The position numbers and the translations under genes were made by a program. Under the pieces are notes generated by a model. It saw only the letters and a list, made by a program, of their open reading frames with translations, was not told the DNA's origin and did not search any database. Of a stretch of 64,000 nucleotides of DNA, positions 31,684-42,906 are shown in pieces (the first letter of the stretch is position 1; each line of letters begins with the position of its first letter). The DNA is taken from NCBI RefSeq assembly GCF_056712565.1, contig NZ_CM160072.1; one strand, 5' to 3'.

Positions 31684-32736
31684 TTACGGGGTAATGCCAA
31701 CCGCTGCCGCCACTTTGTCGCCACTTGGCAGCGTTGCCAGAGGATTGAAACGGAGCGCCGTTTCCAGATGATCCGGTGCCAGATGTGCGTAACGCATAGT
31801 CATTTTTATATCGTGGTGTCCGAGAATTTTTTGTAAGGCCAGAATGTTTCCACCCGACATCATGAAGTGCGCCGCAAACGTATGGCGCAGAACGTGTGTG
31901 AGTTGACCGCGAGGGAGCACGATAGACGTTTTTTCCATCACGGATAAAAATTGAAAATAGCAGTCTGTGAAGAAATTGAACCCATCAAGCGCCATGATCT
32001 CTTCGTAAAGCTCTTTACTGATAGGGATGCTTCTGTTTTTCTTCCCCTTCGTTCTGACAAAGGTAATTCGGTATTTGGTCACCTGTGAGCGGGTAAGATT
32101 TACGGCTTCACGCCAGCGTGCGCCTGTGCTTAAGCATATCTTAACTACCAGTGCCAGAATTGGGTCCTGACGTTTGCAATCAGCCAGCAATTCAACAATC
32201 TGCTCATGGGTAAGCCATGCCATCTCTTTTTCTGCGATGGTGAATTTTCGCATGTTCTCCAGTGGGTTCGGATACGACCATTCGCCCAGACGGGATAGTT
32301 CGCTAAAAACACTACTTAGATAGCTTTGCTCCAGGTTAATGGTGACCGGGCTTGCTCCTTTCTTCCATTTCTCGCTGAAGTAGATCTCGCCTGTCAGGCG
32401 TTTATCTCGATAATGGGCAAACATTTTAGAGGTGAGATCGGTTGCAAGAGGATTGCCCAGAGCGTCAACCATCAACAGCAATTTGTCATAGACATGCTGC
32501 CCAGCTGTCAGAGATTTACCATGTAGTTTGAACCATAGCTCAACCACGTCTTTCAGTGTTCGACGATCCACTGATTCACCCAGCCAGGGCTTTGCTTCGG
32601 TTTCTTCCATCGTGTGGCGCTCAAAAGCCAGTGCTTCGCCTTTGGTGGCGAATTGTTTACGCACACGACGCCCACTTCGTCCGGCGGGGTAACATTCGCA
32701 AAGCCATTTCCCAGTGGTGAGTTTTCGTACTGCCAT
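31684..32736 (-). CDS. int: phage integrase (tyrosine recombinase, P2-type)
   Basis: About 350 aa from MAVRKLTTGKW...; C-terminal catalytic region with HVLRHTFA and LGHHDIKMTMRYAHL (R, H-x-x-R, Y). Confidence 0.9.
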   Translation of the reverse strand: MAVRKLTTGKWLCECYPAGRSGRRVRKQFATKGEALAFERHTMEETEAKPWLGESVDRRTLKDVVELWFKLHGKSLTAGQHVYDKLLLMVDALGNPLATDLTSKMFAHYRDKRLTGEIYFSEKWKKGASPVTINLEQSYLSSVFSELSRLGEWSYPNPLENMRKFTIAEKEMAWLTHEQIVELLADCKRQDPILALVVKICLSTGARWREAVNLTRSQVTKYRITFVRTKGKKNRSIPISKELYEEIMALDGFNFFTDCYFQFLSVMEKTSIVLPRGQLTHVLRHTFAAHFMMSGGNILALQKILGHHDIKMTMRYAHLAPDHLETALRFNPLATLPSGDKVAAAVGITP

Positions 32737-32924
32737 AAAAAATGCCCTCCAGTAGAGAGCATTTTTACTGTATGTATAACCAGTGTCAATGTATGAAATC
32801 CTACGACCATACATCTCACTGAAGCCATAATGAAGTTGGCTATTCTTTTTGCTATGTGAGCATGTAACTTTTGCGGTTAACCTGCGGCTCATTTTTATTT
32901 TAGACGCAGATATAAAAGCAAAAG

Positions 32925-33116
32925 TTATCGTGAGTTTTTAGTACAGATTTTTTTGGATTTACTAATAGTTCCATCATTGCAAACAAATTTTCCATCGGAG
33001 GTACAGTGAGAGACACCTCCCTTTTTCCCAGAACAAGGATAATTTTTAGCATAGGTAGTTAGTGGGCTTAATAACAAAGAGCATGATAAAACCACAAAAA
33101 ATACTTTACCAAGCAT
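32925..33116 (-). CDS. small Cys-rich secreted peptide (moron candidate)
   Basis: 63 aa; signal peptide [23 protein letters not shown]; mature about 40 aa with 5 Cys; AT-rich; between int and repressor. Confidence 0.4.
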
Positions 33117-33131: not shown

Positions 33132-33701
33132 TTATCTAACATATTTAACTGTTAAACTTATAATTTTACCAATTATTTCAATGTCTTCTATCTTACATTC
33201 GAAGGCTCTGTTTCCACCCTCGACGAAGATTCTTCCACCGGGTAAACGAGTAATGTCACGGATCGTTACTTCGCCATCAATACTTATTACCCATTTACCA
33301 TCACGTATGTCATCAAATTCTTTATCACAAATAAATTCAGAATTGTTATCTGTGATGACAAAAGGTTTTTTAAACGTAGAGGGTAGAAATCCCTTATCAA
33401 AAATATAAAAACCGTCTTCACGCAAGGCACCATCAGATAATACATATTTAGCAACTTCCATAGTATTTGTATTACCTGAAGTTTGCTTTGAACCATGTCC
33501 GGTTGTGAGCCAATTAAGCGAGGTGCCCGTTTCAAGGGCGCACTGGATTACCCATTCTGCTGGGAATGAGTCACGCATGTAGCGTGTGGCGAGTGTACTT
33601 TTAGAGATTCCTAAATGATCGCACAACGCCTGTCGAGTCTTGAATCCATAAGCTTCTACCATGCGCTCTATGGCGCCTCGTCCGCCTTTCTCCAAATTCA
33701 T
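33132..33701 (-). CDS. cI: 186 CI-like immunity repressor
   Basis: HTH region GRGAIERMVEAYGFKTRQALCDHLGISKSTLATRYMR; start taken at internal Met (MNLEKGG...) to leave a promoter region; adjacent and divergent to an Apl-like gene. Confidence 0.75.
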   Translation of the reverse strand: MNLEKGGRGAIERMVEAYGFKTRQALCDHLGISKSTLATRYMRDSFPAEWVIQCALETGTSLNWLTTGHGSKQTSGNTNTMEVAKYVLSDGALREDGFYIFDKGFLPSTFKKPFVITDNNSEFICDKEFDDIRDGKWVISIDGEVTIRDITRLPGGRIFVEGGNRAFECKIEDIEIIGKIISLTVKYVR

Positions 33702-35654: not shown

Positions 35655-35881
35655 TGGCTGATGCAATGGATCTCGTACAGCAGCGCGTTGAAGAAGAACG
35701 CCAGCGTCATATCCGTGCTGCCCGTGCCAAAACGCCGGGCGTGTCCCGCGTGCTTTGCATTGAGTGTGAAGCGCCAATTCCGCCAGCACGCCGCCGTGCC
35801 ATTCCAGGTGTGCAGCTTTGCATTACCTGTCAGGAAATCGCAGAGCTGAAAGGCAAACATTACAACGGAGGTGCTGTATGA
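35654..35881 (+). CDS. TraR/DksA-family C4 zinc-finger protein
   Basis: 75 aa; CIECEAPIP...CITCQ (CxxC-N17-CxxC). Confidence 0.7.
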   Translation: MADAMDLVQQRVEEERQRHIRAARAKTPGVSRVLCIECEAPIPPARRRAIPGVQLCITCQEIAELKGKHYNGGAV

Positions 35882-36735
35882 GCACCATCCTGAAATGGGC
35901 GGGAAATAAAACCGCCATTATGTCCGAACTGAAAAAGCATCTTCCTGCTGGCCCGCGACTGGTTGAACCTTTCGCGGGTTCCTGTGCAGTGATGATGGAG
36001 ACGGAGTACCCCAGCTATCTTGTTGCGGATATTAATCCTGATTTAATCAACCTCTATAAAAAGGTTGCTGCTGATTGTGAATCGTTTATATCTCGCGCCA
36101 GAGTTTTATTTGAGATCGCAAACAGGGAGGTGGCTTATTACAACATAAGGAAGGAGTTTAATTACTCAACTGAAATTACTGATTTCATGAAAGCGGTATA
36201 TTTCCTGTATCTCAATCGTCACGGTTACCGTGGTTTATGTCGCTATAACAAGAGCGGGCATTTCAACATTCCCTACGGCAATTATAAAAATCCGTATTTC
36301 CCTGAAAAAGAAATTCGCGCATTTGCAGAAAAAGCCCAGCGAGCAACGTTTATCTGCGCCAGCTTTGATGAAACGCTGGCGATGTTGAAGGCGGGGGATG
36401 TGGTGTATTGCGATCCACCGTATGACGGTACGTTTTCCGGCTATCACACTGACGGCTTCACTGAAGATGACCAGTATCACCTGGCATCTGTTCTTGAACA
36501 TCGGTCATCAGAAGGACATCCGGTCATTGTTTCTAACAGTGACACATCCCTGATCCGTTCGCTGTATCGCAATTTTACTCACCACTATATCAAGGTAAAA
36601 CGCATCATCGGTGTGGCAGCTGGCGAGGGTAAATCAGCAACAGAAATCATTGCTGTTTCCGGGCCGCGCTGCTGGGTGGGATTTGATTATTCGCGTGGCG
36701 TGGATAGTTCTGCCGTGTACGGAGTACGTGCATGA
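35878..36735 (+). CDS. Dam-like DNA adenine methyltransferase (orphan)
   Basis: 285 aa; LKWAGNK N-terminus, FAGS AdoMet motif, DPPY catalytic motif; start overlaps the TraR-like stop (ATGA). Confidence 0.9.
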
Positions 36736-39146
36736 GCCATGCCGATATGAACAACTGCTGCGGCTTTAACGAGGCTGCCGCAGCGTTCTCATGGAACAGC
36801 CCGAAAAAGGCCATTAACCCTTATCTGGACCCGGCGGAAGTTGCGCCGGTTTCTGCGCTTTCAAACCTGATCACTCTGTACGCTGCCGATAACGAGCAGG
36901 AACAGTTGCGCCGCGAGGCACTGAGTGATCAGGTCTGGGAGCGTTATTTTTTTAATGAATCACGTGATCCTGTCCAGCACGAAATGGAGCAGGATAAGCT
37001 CATTAGCCGGGCAAAGCTGGCGCATGAGCAGCAGCGTTTTAATCCGGATATGGTCATTCTGGCGGACGTCAACGCCCAGCCTTCCCATATCAGCAAGCCG
37101 CTGATGCAACGTATTGAATACTTCAGCAGCCTGGGCAGGCCAAAGGCTTATTCCCGCTATTTACGTGAGACGATTAAGCCATGTCTGGAACGACTGGAGC
37201 ATGTACGCGACAGCCAGCTATCTGCATCTTTTCGTTTTATGGCAAGCCATGTAGGGCTGGACGGCCTGCTGATTCTGCCTGAAATGAGTCAGGATCAGGT
37301 GAAACGCCTGTCTACCCTTGTCGCTGCGCATATGAGCATGTGCCTTGATGCAGCTTGTGGTGATTTGTATGCCACCGATGACGTTAAGCCAGAAGAAATC
37401 CGCAAGACATGGGAAAAGGTGGCAGCGGAAACCCTGCGTCTGGATGTCATCCCGCCTGCGTTTGAGCAACTCCGTCGGAAAAGAAACCGCCGTAAACCCG
37501 TGCCCTATGAACTCATTCCGGGTTCGCTGGCGCGTATGTTGTGCGCCGACTGGTGGTACCGGAAATTATGGAAAATGCGTTGCGAATGGCGGGAAGAGCA
37601 GTTGCGTGCTGTCTGCCTGGTCAGCAAAAAAGCATCTCCCTATGTCAGCTATGAAGCCGTGATGCATAAACGTGAGCAGCGCCGCAAGTCACTGGAGTTT
37701 TTCCGTTCTCATGAACTGGTGAACGAAGAGGGCGACACGCTGGATATGGAAGACGTGGTAAACGCCAGCAGCAGCAACCCGGCGCACCGCCGCAATGAGA
37801 TGATGGCCTGTGTTAAAGGTCTGGAGCTTATCGCGGAAATGCGCGGTGACTGCGCCGTTTTCTACACCATTACCTGTCCGTCACGTTTCCATTCCACGCT
37901 CAATAACGGCAGACCAAACCCAACCTGGACAAATGCGACGGTAAGACAAAGCAGCGATTATCTGGTCGGCATGTTTGCTGCATTTCGTAAGGCGATGCAC
38001 AAAGCCGGGTTGCGCTGGTATGGCGTGCGGGTGGCTGAGCCGCATCATGACGGTACAGTTCACTGGCACCTGTTGTGTTTTATGCGCAAAAAAGACCGCC
38101 GCGCCATTACTGCATTGTTGCGTAAGTTTGCCATCCGTGAAGACCGCGAGGAACTGGGTAATAACACTGGTCCACGCTTTAAATCTGAGCTGATAAACCC
38201 GCGCAAAGGAACGCCGACAAGCTACATCGCGAAATACATCAGTAAGAACATTGACGGGCGTGGTCTGGCTGGCGAGATCAGCAAGGAAACGGGTAAATCC
38301 CTGCGTGATAACGCTGAATACGTTAATGCCTGGGCGTCTCTGCATCGTGTTCAGCAATTCCGCTTCTTTGGTATTCCAGGGCGTCAGGCTTACCGTGAAC
38401 TGCGGTTGTTGGCTGGTCAGGCGGCAAGGCAGCAGGGTGACAAAAAAGCAGGTGCGCCGGTACTGGATAACCCGCGCCTTGATGCCATCCTGGCTGCTGC
38501 TGATGCTGGCTGTTTTGCCACCTACATTATGAGGCAGGGCGGCGTGCTGGTTCCTCGCAAATATCACTTGATCAGAACCGCTTATGAAATCAATGAAGAG
38601 CCGACCGCCTATGGCGATCACGGTATTCGTATTTATGGCATCTGGTCACCCATTGCAGAAGGCAAGATCTGCACTCATGCAGTGAAGTGGAAAATGGTTC
38701 GTAAAGCCGTTGACGTTCAGGAGGCGGCAGCCGACCAGGGCGCTTGCGCCCCTTGGACTCGTGGCAATAACTGTCCCCTTGCTGAAAATTTGAACCAACA
38801 AGGGAAAGACAAATCAGCTGATGGGGATACCAGGACGGACATTACCCGCATGGATGACAAGGAGTTGCACGATTACCTGCACAGTATGAGCAAAAAAGAG
38901 CGCCGGGAACTGGCTGCAAGGTTACGCCTGGTGAAACCGAAACGGCGTAAAGACTACAAACAGCGAATTATAGACCATCAGCGACAGCAGCTCGTCTATG
39001 AACTGAAGTCCAGAGGATTTAATGGCAGCGAGAAAGAGGTCGATTTACTCCTTCGCGGCGGCAGTATTCCGTCAGGAGCAGGCCTGCGTATCTTCTATCG
39101 GAACCAGCGTTTGCAGGAAGATGATAAGTGGCGAAACCTGTATTAA
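36732..39146 (+). CDS. A: replication initiation endonuclease (P2 gpA / 186 A family)
   Basis: 804 aa; HWHLLCF motif and tyrosine-rich active region (YIAKYISK). Confidence 0.88.
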
Positions 39147-39238
39147 TTACGCGGGTTAACAATTCGTGCTCTTAATAATACCAGGCATATCAGGCTAATG
39201 AACGTAAAAAAACGTTTTACATCAGTAAGATTATTATA

Positions 39239-39258
39239 TACTGTAAATATAAACAGTG
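39239..39258 (+). promoter_or_regulatory. LexA box (SOS operator)
   Basis: TACTGTAAATATAAACAGTG matches CTGT-N8-ACAG; 40 bp upstream of a small ORF plus dinI-like gene. Confidence 0.6.
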
Positions 39259-39299
39259 GTTATGTATACAGTATTGCTTGTGGTGTCATAGGAGGAAAG

Positions 39300-39488
39300 A
39301 TGCAGGACTATTTTTTGGAGTCTTTGAAGCTCCAGCGCATTGATTTTTTTCTTAAGCTTGTAGCGGCTAGTGAGTGTAGTGATGAAGAGAAGGGGCTGGC
39401 TTTGCAGTGGGTTTCTGAACTGACAGATGAACTCATGGCAAAAATCAGAACCCACGAATACAACCGCTCAATGGATGTCATCAGCTGA
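39300..39488 (+). CDS. small SOS-operon protein (possible Tum-like antirepressor fragment)
   Basis: 62 aa; GGAGG RBS; directly downstream of the LexA box and upstream of the dinI-like gene. Confidence 0.4.
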   Translation: MQDYFLESLKLQRIDFFLKLVAASECSDEEKGLALQWVSELTDELMAKIRTHEYNRSMDVIS

Positions 39489-39498
39489 GGTGACCTTT

Positions 39499-39732
39499 AT
39501 GCGCATTGAAATAATGATCGATAAAGAGCAGAAGATTAGCCAGTCTACCCTGGACGCCCTTGAATCCGAGCTTTACCGCAATCTGCGCCCCCTGTATCCC
39601 AAAACGGTAATTCGCATCCGCAAAGGTAGCTCTAACGGTGTGGAACTGACCGGACTGCAACTGGACGAAGAAAGAAAACAAGTGATGAAGATTATGCAGA
39701 AGGTGTGGGAAGACGACAGCTGGCTGCATTAA
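39499..39732 (+). CDS. DinI-family protein
   Basis: 77 aa; MRIEIMIDKEQ...VWEDDSWLH resembles DinI (MRIEVTI...); GAGGTGA RBS. Confidence 0.75.
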   Translation: MRIEIMIDKEQKISQSTLDALESELYRNLRPLYPKTVIRIRKGSSNGVELTGLQLDEERKQVMKIMQKVWEDDSWLH

Positions 39733-39891
39733 GAAAAGTTGCTGGCGTCTGAACTTGGTTCTGGCGTCAGCAAGGTTGAACAACGAGTACAGTGAGGCGT
39801 TAGGTGTGGCGTTTATTTGATGAGTGAACGCCCGTTCTGCGATAGGTTCGGAGATTAAGGTTGAAACTACGGGCAAAATACCATCTTTTTC

Positions 39892-40317
39892 CTACTTAAT
39901 TGAGTCCAGTAACAAGTTACAGTTACTCTCATTGTAGAGAGAACGAGCAATTAGTGTTACCTGCTTTCCATTCATTCCCGGCTTATCCCATAACACAGCT
40001 TCTTGCGACGCCACAAATTCAGCATAATCAATTATGCGTTGTTCGTGATCTGGTTCCTCATAGCCAAAGTATGAGAGCGCATCGTTGTAAGCGTGGTAAG
40101 CTGCTTTCTGTAATATCTTGATATCGGCTGTAGGTACTTGCTCCGTGTAGCTAGGATCTAATTGTGTGCTACTGCCATAGAATGCACATGAAAGGTAAGA
40201 TATTGATTTCTGTTGAGCTTTAGTTCCTTTCTCATAGTTTTTAGCTGTTACCGCCTGAACAGGGACGCTAACAAAGCTTGCAACCAGAATTAAAATTAAT
40301 ACGTAAAAGCTTTTCAT
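39892..40317 (-). CDS. secreted protein of unknown function (cargo)
   Basis: 141 aa; signal peptide MKSFYVLILILVASFVSVPVQA; lower-GC segment; opposite strand to flanking phage genes. Confidence 0.6.
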   Translation of the reverse strand: MKSFYVLILILVASFVSVPVQAVTAKNYEKGTKAQQKSISYLSCAFYGSSTQLDPSYTEQVPTADIKILQKAAYHAYNDALSYFGYEEPDHEQRIIDYAEFVASQEAVLWDKPGMNGKQVTLIARSLYNESNCNLLLDSIK

Positions 40318-40761: not shown

Positions 40762-41409
40762 ATGATTGGTCCTGAATATGTCGTAGTTGTTGGCGTGCTT
40801 AATGCAGGTTTGGTTAGTTTTTTAGGAACAGGTTTTTTTATTTCTAAGGATAAAATAATTACTTCCCGCCATGTTATTAATGGGTTTTCTTCTAACTTAG
40901 TTATTTCTCCATCTAATATAAATAACTTTAATAGTTATCAGGATACAAGTGTTGATAAATTTCAATGTATTGGAGTTGATGTTATTGATGAAGATCCAAT
41001 AAAAGACTTATGTGTGTTAAAAATTAAAAATGCACCTGTTTATGAACCTTGCCTAAAAATTGCTACTCTTGACGATGTTAATGTCGGTGAAGATGTGGGT
41101 ATTTTAGGTTTCCCACATTGTAATGAAAATAGAAAAGTATTGACATTTCAAACGGCAAAAATAGGTGCAAAAGTTTTACTTTCAAGCAGTAATATTCAAT
41201 CTAAACATGCCGTTATAAATATCCAAACCAGACCTGGTCAATCGGGATCGATTGTATTTAATTTAAAAAATGACTCGGTAATAGGCGTCTTGGTTGGCGC
41301 TTATGCAAATAATTCTGGAGGTTCTGTTTTGGTTGGAGGTATTAATCCAGCTGAACTACATCAGACAACTTATGCGGTTTCTGCAGAATATGTTAAGGAT
41401 ATGTTATGA
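40762..41409 (+). CDS. trypsin-like (S1/chymotrypsin-fold) serine protease, stand-alone domain
   Basis: 216 aa from MIGPEYVVVVG... (GGAG RBS); candidate triad His in GTGFFISKDKIITSRHV, Asp in DLCVLKI, Ser in RPGQSGSIVF; about 30% GC. Confidence 0.75.
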   Translation: MIGPEYVVVVGVLNAGLVSFLGTGFFISKDKIITSRHVINGFSSNLVISPSNINNFNSYQDTSVDKFQCIGVDVIDEDPIKDLCVLKIKNAPVYEPCLKIATLDDVNVGEDVGILGFPHCNENRKVLTFQTAKIGAKVLLSSSNIQSKHAVINIQTRPGQSGSIVFNLKNDSVIGVLVGAYANNSGGSVLVGGINPAELHQTTYAVSAEYVKDML

Positions 41410-41852
41410 TTGCTATACCAAATGAAGATGCTGAGTCTTGGTTGTCCACTTTAAAAACGTATCAATCTTCATCTGTCAGGAATTTTCTCGAAAATGGCGA
41501 TGAAGAAAAGGCTCTTGAGCTATGGCTAACTGCATCTGGCCCAAGTTCAGTTGCTCAATTTGGCGGTGATAATTCAAAAATGCCGGGAAGAAAAGCGTTT
41601 GTTGAGCAGTTTAAATTAGAGTTTAAGGCTTTTGTATGTGGAGGTGATAAATATGCAGAGGAGAGGGAATGTTTAGGAGCACTGACTGGTGATGTTAAAA
41701 CATACTTTGTAGGGGTGATCTCTTCGGCAATTGCGGGTTCTTTGGGGGCAACAGCAACATTTATTGCTCCAGCTGTAGTAATTATGTTGATAGCTGTCTC
41801 AAAAATGGGAATTAATGCTTGGTGTTCATTAGAGACAACGACAGAATCTTAG
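41406..41852 (+). CDS. small tail-anchored membrane protein, partner of the protease
   Basis: 148 aa; start overlaps protease stop (ATGA); C-terminal Gly/Ala-rich hydrophobic helix YFVGVISSAIAGSLGATATFIAPAVVIMLIAVS; AT-rich. Confidence 0.6.
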   Translation: MIAIPNEDAESWLSTLKTYQSSSVRNFLENGDEEKALELWLTASGPSSVAQFGGDNSKMPGRKAFVEQFKLEFKAFVCGGDKYAEERECLGALTGDVKTYFVGVISSAIAGSLGATATFIAPAVVIMLIAVSKMGINAWCSLETTTES

Positions 41853-41855
41853 GAA

Positions 41856-41880
41856 AACGCCCTTTTAGGGCGTTTTTTTA
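41856..41880 (+). terminator. rho-independent terminator after the protease operon
   Basis: AACGCCCT-ttta-AGGGCGTT followed by TTTTTTT; overlaps the portal gene stop on the other strand. Confidence 0.6.
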
Positions 41881-42906
41881 TAAATCATAATGCTGAAATC
41901 GGATAGTTTTCTCACCTAACCATTCATTAACTTCCATTATTCTTTTTTGGAGTGGAATTAGTTCATTTCTAACAAAAACCTTACTCGCCTTCTCCACATC
42001 CCCAAACCCTCCAACATTATTAGGCATTATCCCCATCATTTGTGGCGGCACACGATGCGCCGCCATCATGTCGTCCCGGCTCACGTTCTTGATATTCAGG
42101 AACTCATCCTTCGCCGCCACTTCTGACAACGGGATAATCTGAAGCCCGTCCTTTTTACCGTTAGGCGAGTACATAAACAGGTTACGGAAGTTACCAGGAC
42201 CTTTGGCACTTTTCATCGCGTTGCGGAGATTGTTCACATCCTCCTGATTCTGCGCGGCATCGGTCATATACATGATGAAGCCTGCATGGCTGCCGTTGAT
42301 GTAATACTTGCGGCGGAACAGCGTGGCGGACTTATTGAGCAGGGCTGACGGAATGGCAGAAAGATAGCCGGGCAGGCCGTAGATCTCCTGGTTGATGTCC
42401 GGTTCCATCAGATGAAAAATGCTGCCTTTCGTGAACTGATACGGCTGGGTTGTCATACCGTATTGCACAAACCAGTAGGTATCCAGGTCTAACCCGCGTC
42501 GGGTGTATTTTGCCAGCGCAGGATCAAGGGCGATAACTTCACCGAATCGGTTCGTGCGTTTCTCCAGGTAGGCGTTACCAAATACCAGATAGTCCTGCAC
42601 AAAACGCGAAAAAGCCTGCTGGCTGAGCAGCGGATGAGGGATATAGGTACTGGTCAGAATGTTGCACTTTACTGCAATCGGAGAACTGTGATGCACGGCG
42701 GCGCGGAAGGTGCGCGCCAGTCCGTCAAAGCTGACGGGCGGCTCATACCAGCGATCTGTCTGTACGCATTCCACATAGTCCAGCAGTTCACGGCGGTCCA
42801 GAACAGGAACGGGATCACCGAAGCTGAATGCTTCGGCTGAAGTCTGGCTTTTATGCTGGAGCTGGTTCGTCGACGCAGCGCGGTTCTTCTTACTCTTTCC
42901 CATCAA
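41878..42906 (-). CDS. Q: portal protein (P2 gpQ-like)
   Basis: 342 aa; size and position (upstream terminase on the same strand) match P2 Q. Confidence 0.88.
   Translation of the reverse strand: MMGKSKKNRAASTNQLQHKSQTSAEAFSFGDPVPVLDRRELLDYVECVQTDRWYEPPVSFDGLARTFRAAVHHSSPIAVKCNILTSTYIPHPLLSQQAFSRFVQDYLVFGNAYLEKRTNRFGEVIALDPALAKYTRRGLDLDTYWFVQYGMTTQPYQFTKGSIFHLMEPDINQEIYGLPGYLSAIPSALLNKSATLFRRKYYINGSHAGFIMYMTDAAQNQEDVNNLRNAMKSAKGPGNFRNLFMYSPNGKKDGLQIIPLSEVAAKDEFLNIKNVSRDDMMAAHRVPPQMMGIMPNNVGGFGDVEKASKVFVRNELIPLQKRIMEVNEWLGEKTIRFQHYDL

Follow-up and report, generated by a model that had tools for sequence, protein, structure and literature searches.

The segment at 39239–39732 of the window (the whole 64,000-nt stretch of DNA that was analysed) is very probably the SOS-induction operon of a P2-like prophage of the Fels-2/DuoHS type, with tum in its 'split' form. 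It comprises a LexA operator, a gene for a 62-aa predicted antirepressor (tumA) and a gene for a 77-aa DinI-family protein (tumB). A first-pass annotation of the same DNA had pointed to these three elements, and each was confirmed where it had been placed. The split-tum operon found here is of an already known kind, the ordinary DNA-damage switch of a P2/186-like prophage. Within that kind it belongs to the split subtype of phages PSP3 and Fels-2, with a TumA of ∼60 aa, a DinI-like TumB of 77 aa and one LexA box.

The prophage lies between rcdA and ybjL, and the flanking chromosome carries the E. coli gene series mdfA-ybjGHIJ-rcdA. The integrase gene int (31684–32736, minus strand) marks its left end. 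Further in are the gene for a CI-like immunity repressor of the 186 type (33132–33701, minus strand), the presumed target of TumA, and the genes for a Dam methylase (35818–36735) and for the gpA replication endonuclease (36732–39146), with an Apl/Cox-like gene and a CII-like gene between those for CI and the methylase. The operon starts directly downstream of gpA, ∼70 nt beyond its end, and this order, gene A and then an SOS operon, is common to 186, PSP3, Fels-2 and the prophage of E. coli HS. The likeness to the tum operon of phage 186 that had been proposed from the sequence was borne out: in position and anatomy the module corresponds to the SOS operon of 186 (p95-tum), following gene A and having its LexA box on the putative −10 hexamer.

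The LexA operator (SOS box), TACTGTAAATATAAACAGTG, occupies 39239–39258 and differs from the 20-nt consensus TACTGTATATATATACAGTA at three positions, none of them in the CTGT/ACAG arms. It is the sole match to the consensus with three or fewer mismatches in the 64-kb window, and 100 shuffles produced none. With a crude, uncurated position weight matrix (PWM) based on about 15 SOS boxes of E. coli, it scores 23.5 bits, towards the top of the 13.7–26.5 spanned by the training sites. The box was compared with those of six relatives (186, PSP3, Fels-2, a Yersinia phage, ESSI-2 and ESSI2_ev129), all of which have a single CTGT-N8-ACAG in the fetched locus, 20–45 nt 5′ of the tum or tumA start. These boxes score 23–28 bits with the same PWM and keep the arms, while their 8-nt spacers all differ, and this holds even where the protein is only 15–44% identical. 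E. coli HS also has a LexA box at this position. Conserved arms with variable spacers at the same place in relatives are what is expected of a functional operator, and LexA would be expected to bind at 39239–39258.

Short palindromes do arise by chance, and the minimal 16-nt pattern CTGT-N8-ACAG is expected 0.63 times per window, where it occurs once, as the tumA box. That the LexA-like sequence is a fortuitous AT-rich palindrome and the module free of SOS control is nevertheless barely conceivable, since the full 20-mer match had no counterpart in the shuffles, the box recurs at the same place in relatives with conserved arms and variable spacers, and a lexA(Ind−) allele blocks induction of the near-identical HS prophage.

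A putative sigma-70 promoter on the plus strand, equivalent to p95 of 186, can be read at 39216–39244, with the −35 hexamer TTTACA at 39216–39221, a 17-bp spacer and the −10 hexamer TACTGT at 39239–39244. In p95 the −10 hexamer coincides with positions 1–6 of the LexA box, and the same was read here; the assignment is made purely by this analogy. A consensus scan for promoters and terminators returned nothing for the plus-strand operon, and it misses this promoter because the −10 hexamer matches at only three of six positions.

The PWM also picks out a weaker LexA-like site, CAGTGGTTATGTATACAGTA, at 39254–39273, which overlaps the main box by 5 nt and has a perfect right half and a degenerate left half. 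It scores 16.5 bits, its counterparts in Fels-2 and HS scoring 15.7 and 17.7 bits, and the HS copy is 1 nt off a second LexA box that lies upstream of int (described below). Its role is uncertain; it may be left over from a duplication or may bind LexA with low affinity. Occupation of 39254–39273 by a second LexA dimer seems doubtful, given the degenerate left half-site and the probable steric clash from the 5-nt overlap.

The first gene, tumA (39300–39488, plus strand), has its ATG at 39300, 41 nt beyond the LexA box, a Shine-Dalgarno sequence AGGAGG at 39290–39295 and its stop codon at 39486–39488. The mechanical ORF is longer (39198–39488, 96 aa) and begins 5′ of the LexA box; the 62-aa form is that of the RefSeq annotation in E. 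coli HS. Orthologues in public records are often called from upstream starts (84–101 aa) that would run through the LexA box. They are nearly always named 'hypothetical protein', occasionally 'levan regulatory protein'.

TumA had no match in Pfam, NCBIfam or the PDB sequences, and BLASTP gave no alignment of it with either 186 Tum or PSP3 TumA. The case for its homology to Tum rests on profile methods. TumA belongs to phrog_698 (E 4e-38), which 186 Tum also matches (E 2.4e-5), residues 7–44 falling in register on profile positions 7–44; two more families, phrog_8554 and phrog_1993, are matched by both proteins. When 27 diverse TumA relatives were aligned with 15 relatives of the N-terminal half of Tum by hhalign, residues 1–46 fell on residues 1–46 without a gap (96.5%, E 7e-10), and a seven-sequence alignment has the common core LQRI..F..L.A...C...EK.LAL.W..EL. 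These comparisons uphold the earlier suggestion that the small ORF is Tum-like and place TumA, by its sequence, in remote homology to the antirepressor part of 186 Tum, its N-terminal half. To STM2728 of Fels-2, TumA is 98% identical. AlphaFold2 models it with a mean pLDDT of 85.8 as helices 2–23 and 28–61, a predicted helical hairpin.

The second gene, tumB (39499–39732, plus strand; ATG at 39499, stop codon at 39730–39732), begins in a different frame after a gap of 10 nt and has its own Shine-Dalgarno sequence, GAGGTG, which overlaps the tumA stop codon. Its 77-aa product matches the Pfam DinI profile PF06183 over all of its positions (1–63 of 63; E 8e-23), E. coli DinI (PDB 1GHH) over the full length (E 2.7e-6) and phrog_189. 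Against the equivalog model for chromosomal dinI (NCBIfam NF007893) it scores 42.7 bits, the cut-off being 111; by these matches TumB is a phage DinI-like paralogue and not dinI itself. TumB is also 41% identical, without gaps, to residues 71–145 of 186 Tum. Residue 71 of Tum is, in the 186 annotation, the GTG start of a separate 77-aa product that 'modulates SOS induction', and on this alignment TumB is equivalent both to the C-terminal half of Tum and to that separate product. A modulating effect of TumB on RecA, which had been suggested for the DinI homologue, is plausible; E. coli DinI and a single line of the 186 annotation are the sources from which a function for TumB is extrapolated.

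Among known systems, that of coliphage 186 (p95-tum-orf97) is the reference. Like the operon here it lies downstream of gene A and has a LexA box over the −10 hexamer, and its Tum combines an N-terminal domain with a DinI-like C-terminal domain and acts in a phage whose CI is inactivated by binding and not by cleavage. The two differ in that 186 Tum is one 146-aa polypeptide with internal starts, whereas our operon has a pair of cistrons that lie in different frames; TumA shows only ∼20% identity to the N-terminal half of Tum, and the downstream cargo differs. The comparison with Tum and orf97 that had been proposed for the two ORFs thus held for Tum, whose N-terminal half aligns with TumA and C-terminal half with TumB, and failed for orf97; in 186 the DinI-like part is this C-terminal half of Tum and not orf97. 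By tblastn the window contains no homologue of orf97, of Fels-2 STM2726 or of the downstream gene of HS.

In PSP3 the annotation itself describes two genes: tumA is 'similar to 5′ end 186 tum; UV induction of prophage' and tumB 'similar to dinI and 3′ end of 186 tum'. Unlike those here, they lie in one frame, separated by the stop codon and one codon, and PSP3 TumA is ∼15% identical to TumA of this prophage. Fels-2 (STM2728/STM2726.1) is closer, with the same split layout, an identical LexA box and the same 10-nt gap between cistrons in different frames. The CI of Fels-2 shares only 38% identity with that of this prophage. The division of tum into two halves in Fels-2 and PSP3 was described by Lemire et al. 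(2011; PMC3121763), who cite Bunny et al. (2002; PMC151935), the primary source for the Fels-2 split, and report from G. E. Christie, as a personal communication, that the antirepressor activity is carried by the upstream PSP3 gene. A literature search for the names tumA and tumB returned unrelated papers only.

Alike in logic are the LexA-controlled operons of the Gifsy phages and Fels-1, in which a dinI homologue precedes gfoA or gftA, and AntC of N15 (PMC3121763). These share with our operon a small LexA-repressed antirepressor, a non-cleavable repressor to which it binds and a DinI homologue in the operon. They differ from it in their reversed gene order and, by their descriptions, in unrelated antirepressor and repressor families.

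A close relative with experimental data is the prophage of E. coli HS, published as DuoHS, which occupies the same rcdA/ybjL site and has the same gene order. Its CI is 96% identical to the one here, its TumA matches at 61 of 62 residues and the module as a whole is about 98% identical in nucleotide sequence. Downstream of tumB the two part, HS having two other hypothetical genes where this prophage has the gene for a 141-aa secreted protein and the PDC-M35 pair described below. In the Phollow study a gene called 'tum' was deleted from HS by an in-frame fusion of its start and stop codons (PMC11195241, PMC12055606). The deletion primers (...ATAGGAGGAAAGATG and TGAGGTGACTTTTATGCGCATTG) match the window at 39280–39302 exactly and at 39486–39508 with one mismatch, so the gene deleted in HS is the orthologue of the 62-aa ORF. 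Either the tum deletion or lexA(Ind−) abolished mitomycin C-induced lysis and the formation of virions and virion foci (PMC11195241, PMC12055606). The same study reports that the host SOS reporter still responds (PMC11195241, PMC12055606).

The HS result could be read in another way, with the 62-aa ORF not an antirepressor at all but in some other role, and induction running through the DinI-like protein or another factor. TumA is without a match in Pfam, NCBIfam or the PDB and passes in the records as a hypothetical protein, and a tumA deletion might disturb translation of the downstream tumB, an effect that the HS deletion could in principle have had, though its primers keep the tumB Shine-Dalgarno sequence. 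We regard this reading as very unlikely. The HS deletion retains the tumB ribosome-binding site, TumA shares homology with the N-terminal half of Tum in 186, and UV induction or antirepressor activity is placed in the upstream gene both by the annotation of PSP3 and by the personal communication cited above. TumA of this prophage is treated below as a probable antirepressor by analogy with its relatives, its contact with CI included.

The first-pass annotation had left open whether the small ORF is a truncated or a split Tum. Split is right, as the tumA/tumB pair of PSP3 and the layout of Fels-2 attest, and truncated is not, the layout being widely conserved. Of 5426 complete E. coli genomes, 1125 contain the module, which also occurs in 67 phage records (Klebsiella, Salmonella, Escherichia, Yersinia), and the two-cistron layout is 90–100% identical across Salmonella, Klebsiella and E. 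coli. In a single-sequence phmmer search with TumA, 1.84 billion representatives yielded 66 relatives; almost all were short, and a fused Tum of ∼146 aa like that of 186 was not among them. Standalone TumA-like proteins of ∼60–75 aa are conserved down to 33% identity. For the N-terminal half of 186 Tum itself, many relatives at 67–98% identity are standalone proteins of 63–78 aa, some of them named 'Tum protein' by their sources.

These distributions bear on the idea that the two ORFs are the wreck of a fused, 186-like tum, broken by a frameshift or nonsense mutation in a prophage no longer SOS-inducible. The single 146-aa polypeptide of 186 invites it, as does the position of the two halves in different frames 10 nt apart. 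Decay is extremely unlikely as an explanation, however, for a layout that gives each gene its own Shine-Dalgarno sequence and start, is 90–100% conserved and recurs in 1125 E. coli genomes; it also sits poorly with the standalone TumA family (∼60–75 aa, down to 33% identity), with the standalone 63–78-aa relatives of the 186 N-terminal half and with the separate translation of the DinI-like half even in 186. HS, which has the same layout, is inducible and needs the small gene. A frameshift joining the two ORFs, which had been put forward as something to check, found no support in their separate frames, the 10-nt gap, the GAGGTG belonging to tumB and the conserved layout. Fusion by programmed frameshifting was rejected as well: it calls for a +1 shift, inspection showed no slippery site, tumB comes with an ATG and a Shine-Dalgarno sequence of its own, and in PSP3 tumA and tumB are already in one frame.

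Downstream of tumB, a stem-loop at 39739–39773 separates the operon from a convergent gene. It folds at −21 to −22 kcal/mol, with a z-score of only −1.7, has no U-run after it on the plus strand and folds more weakly on the minus strand. The terminator scan does not list it, and Rfam gave for 39000–40000 only a chance miRNA match (E 0.65). We take the stem-loop to be a putative terminator at the operon end.

The repressor had been called 186-like, and it is: it is 32% identical to 186 CI over 175 residues, contains both Pfam CI domains, PF07022 (Phage_CI_repr) and PF16452 (Phage_CI_C), and matches the 186 CI structures PDB 2FJR (E 3e-31) and 2FKD. Peptidase_S24 appears only at E 0.015. By analogy with 186, this CI would not undergo RecA-mediated cleavage.

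Tum of phage 186 binds CI. The following mechanism is proposed for the prophage here. In the lysogen, host LexA would occupy the box over the −10 region (promoter 39216–39258) and keep the operon off. DNA damage would bring RecA into its active state, LexA would cleave itself and the operon would be transcribed. TumA would then bind the 186-type CI and block its binding to operators, CI itself staying uncleaved; with CI inactivated, the early lytic promoter would be derepressed and lytic growth would follow. TumB would be co-expressed and most likely binds RecA filaments, tuning the strength or duration of the SOS response. Transcription would end at the stem-loop at 39739–39773, facing the convergent gene. 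The steps of LexA occupancy and of contact between TumA and CI draw on experiments with HS, PSP3 and 186, and the RecA-directed role of TumB on analogy with DinI and with the short 186 Tum product.

The convergent gene (39892–40317, minus strand) encodes a 141-aa protein with a signal-peptide-like N-terminus that matches phrog_7437, a family of unknown function, and nothing in NCBIfam or PADLOC. Two overlapping genes on the plus strand (40762–41852) lie between tumB and the next phage gene, which is probably the portal gene (41878–42906, minus strand), as in HS. They encode a trypsin-like protease (about 215–261 aa) and a 148-aa protein, matching the PADLOC candidate defence entries PDC-M35A (E 4.5e-94) and PDC-M35B (E 4.3e-58), and the cargo region that holds them differs from the cargo of HS, Fels-2 and 186. 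Between cI and int lies a gene (32925–33116, minus strand) for a 63-aa cysteine-rich protein, again with a signal-peptide-like N-terminus, which matches NCBIfam PRK10040.1-2 ('hypothetical protein', E 8e-34) and phrog_6000. This gene appears to be a moron that is co-expressed with the lysogenic operon.

The other top-scoring PWM site in the window lies upstream of int. This site, TACTGTATGTATAACCAGTG, at 32766–32785, reaches 23.7 bits, on a par with the tumA box, and on the minus strand it falls between the hexamers of a TTGACA-17-AAAAAT promoter (32761–32789; 10 of 12 matches). The box lies 29 nt upstream of the int start codon (32736). Box and promoter are both kept in HS, in the Klebsiella phages 4LV2017 and KP12 and in E. 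coli phage 813R9; in these relatives the arms of the box are conserved, the spacers vary, the upstream genes differ and cargo separates int from cI. No such box was found in the fetched stretches of 186, Fels-2, Cartapus and SopEPhi, in which int abuts cI. A search of 5426 E. coli genomes found the int-upstream segment in 924. The arrangement suggests an SOS-inducible integrase promoter that LexA would repress directly; the literature searched contained no description of a LexA or SOS box at the integrase gene of a P2-like phage.

TumA and CI also show unequal conservation. TumA is 98–100% identical among phages whose CI proteins are only 38–57% identical to the one here. The CI proteins of Fels-2, Cartapus and Kp4860-7 stand at 38–50%. 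In these divergent CI proteins the N-terminal DNA-binding (HTH) domain is 67–78% identical and the C-terminal domain 26–42%. The pattern weakly suggests that TumA targets the N-terminal domain of CI and can act across divergent CI proteins. A near-invariant TumA could mean either one antirepressor serving many divergent CI proteins or modules that are freely shuffled. We offer only tentatively, as a possibility somewhat short of even odds, that the prophage has a two-node SOS regulon (tumAB and a LexA-repressed int promoter) together with a broad-spectrum TumA. If so, TumA may cross-induce co-resident P2-like prophages with divergent CI proteins, for which cross-induction described among the Gifsy phages is a precedent.

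The module explains how a common prophage family, with hosts in E. coli, Salmonella and Klebsiella, can be woken by DNA damage (fluoroquinolones, mitomycin C) although its repressor is left uncleaved, by a mechanism already established for 186, PSP3, Fels-2 and DuoHS. Its practical value is one of annotation: a 'hypothetical' 62-aa gene with no Pfam or NCBIfam family is, on the reading preferred here, the induction switch, and about 20% of complete E. coli genomes carry prophages with this switch.
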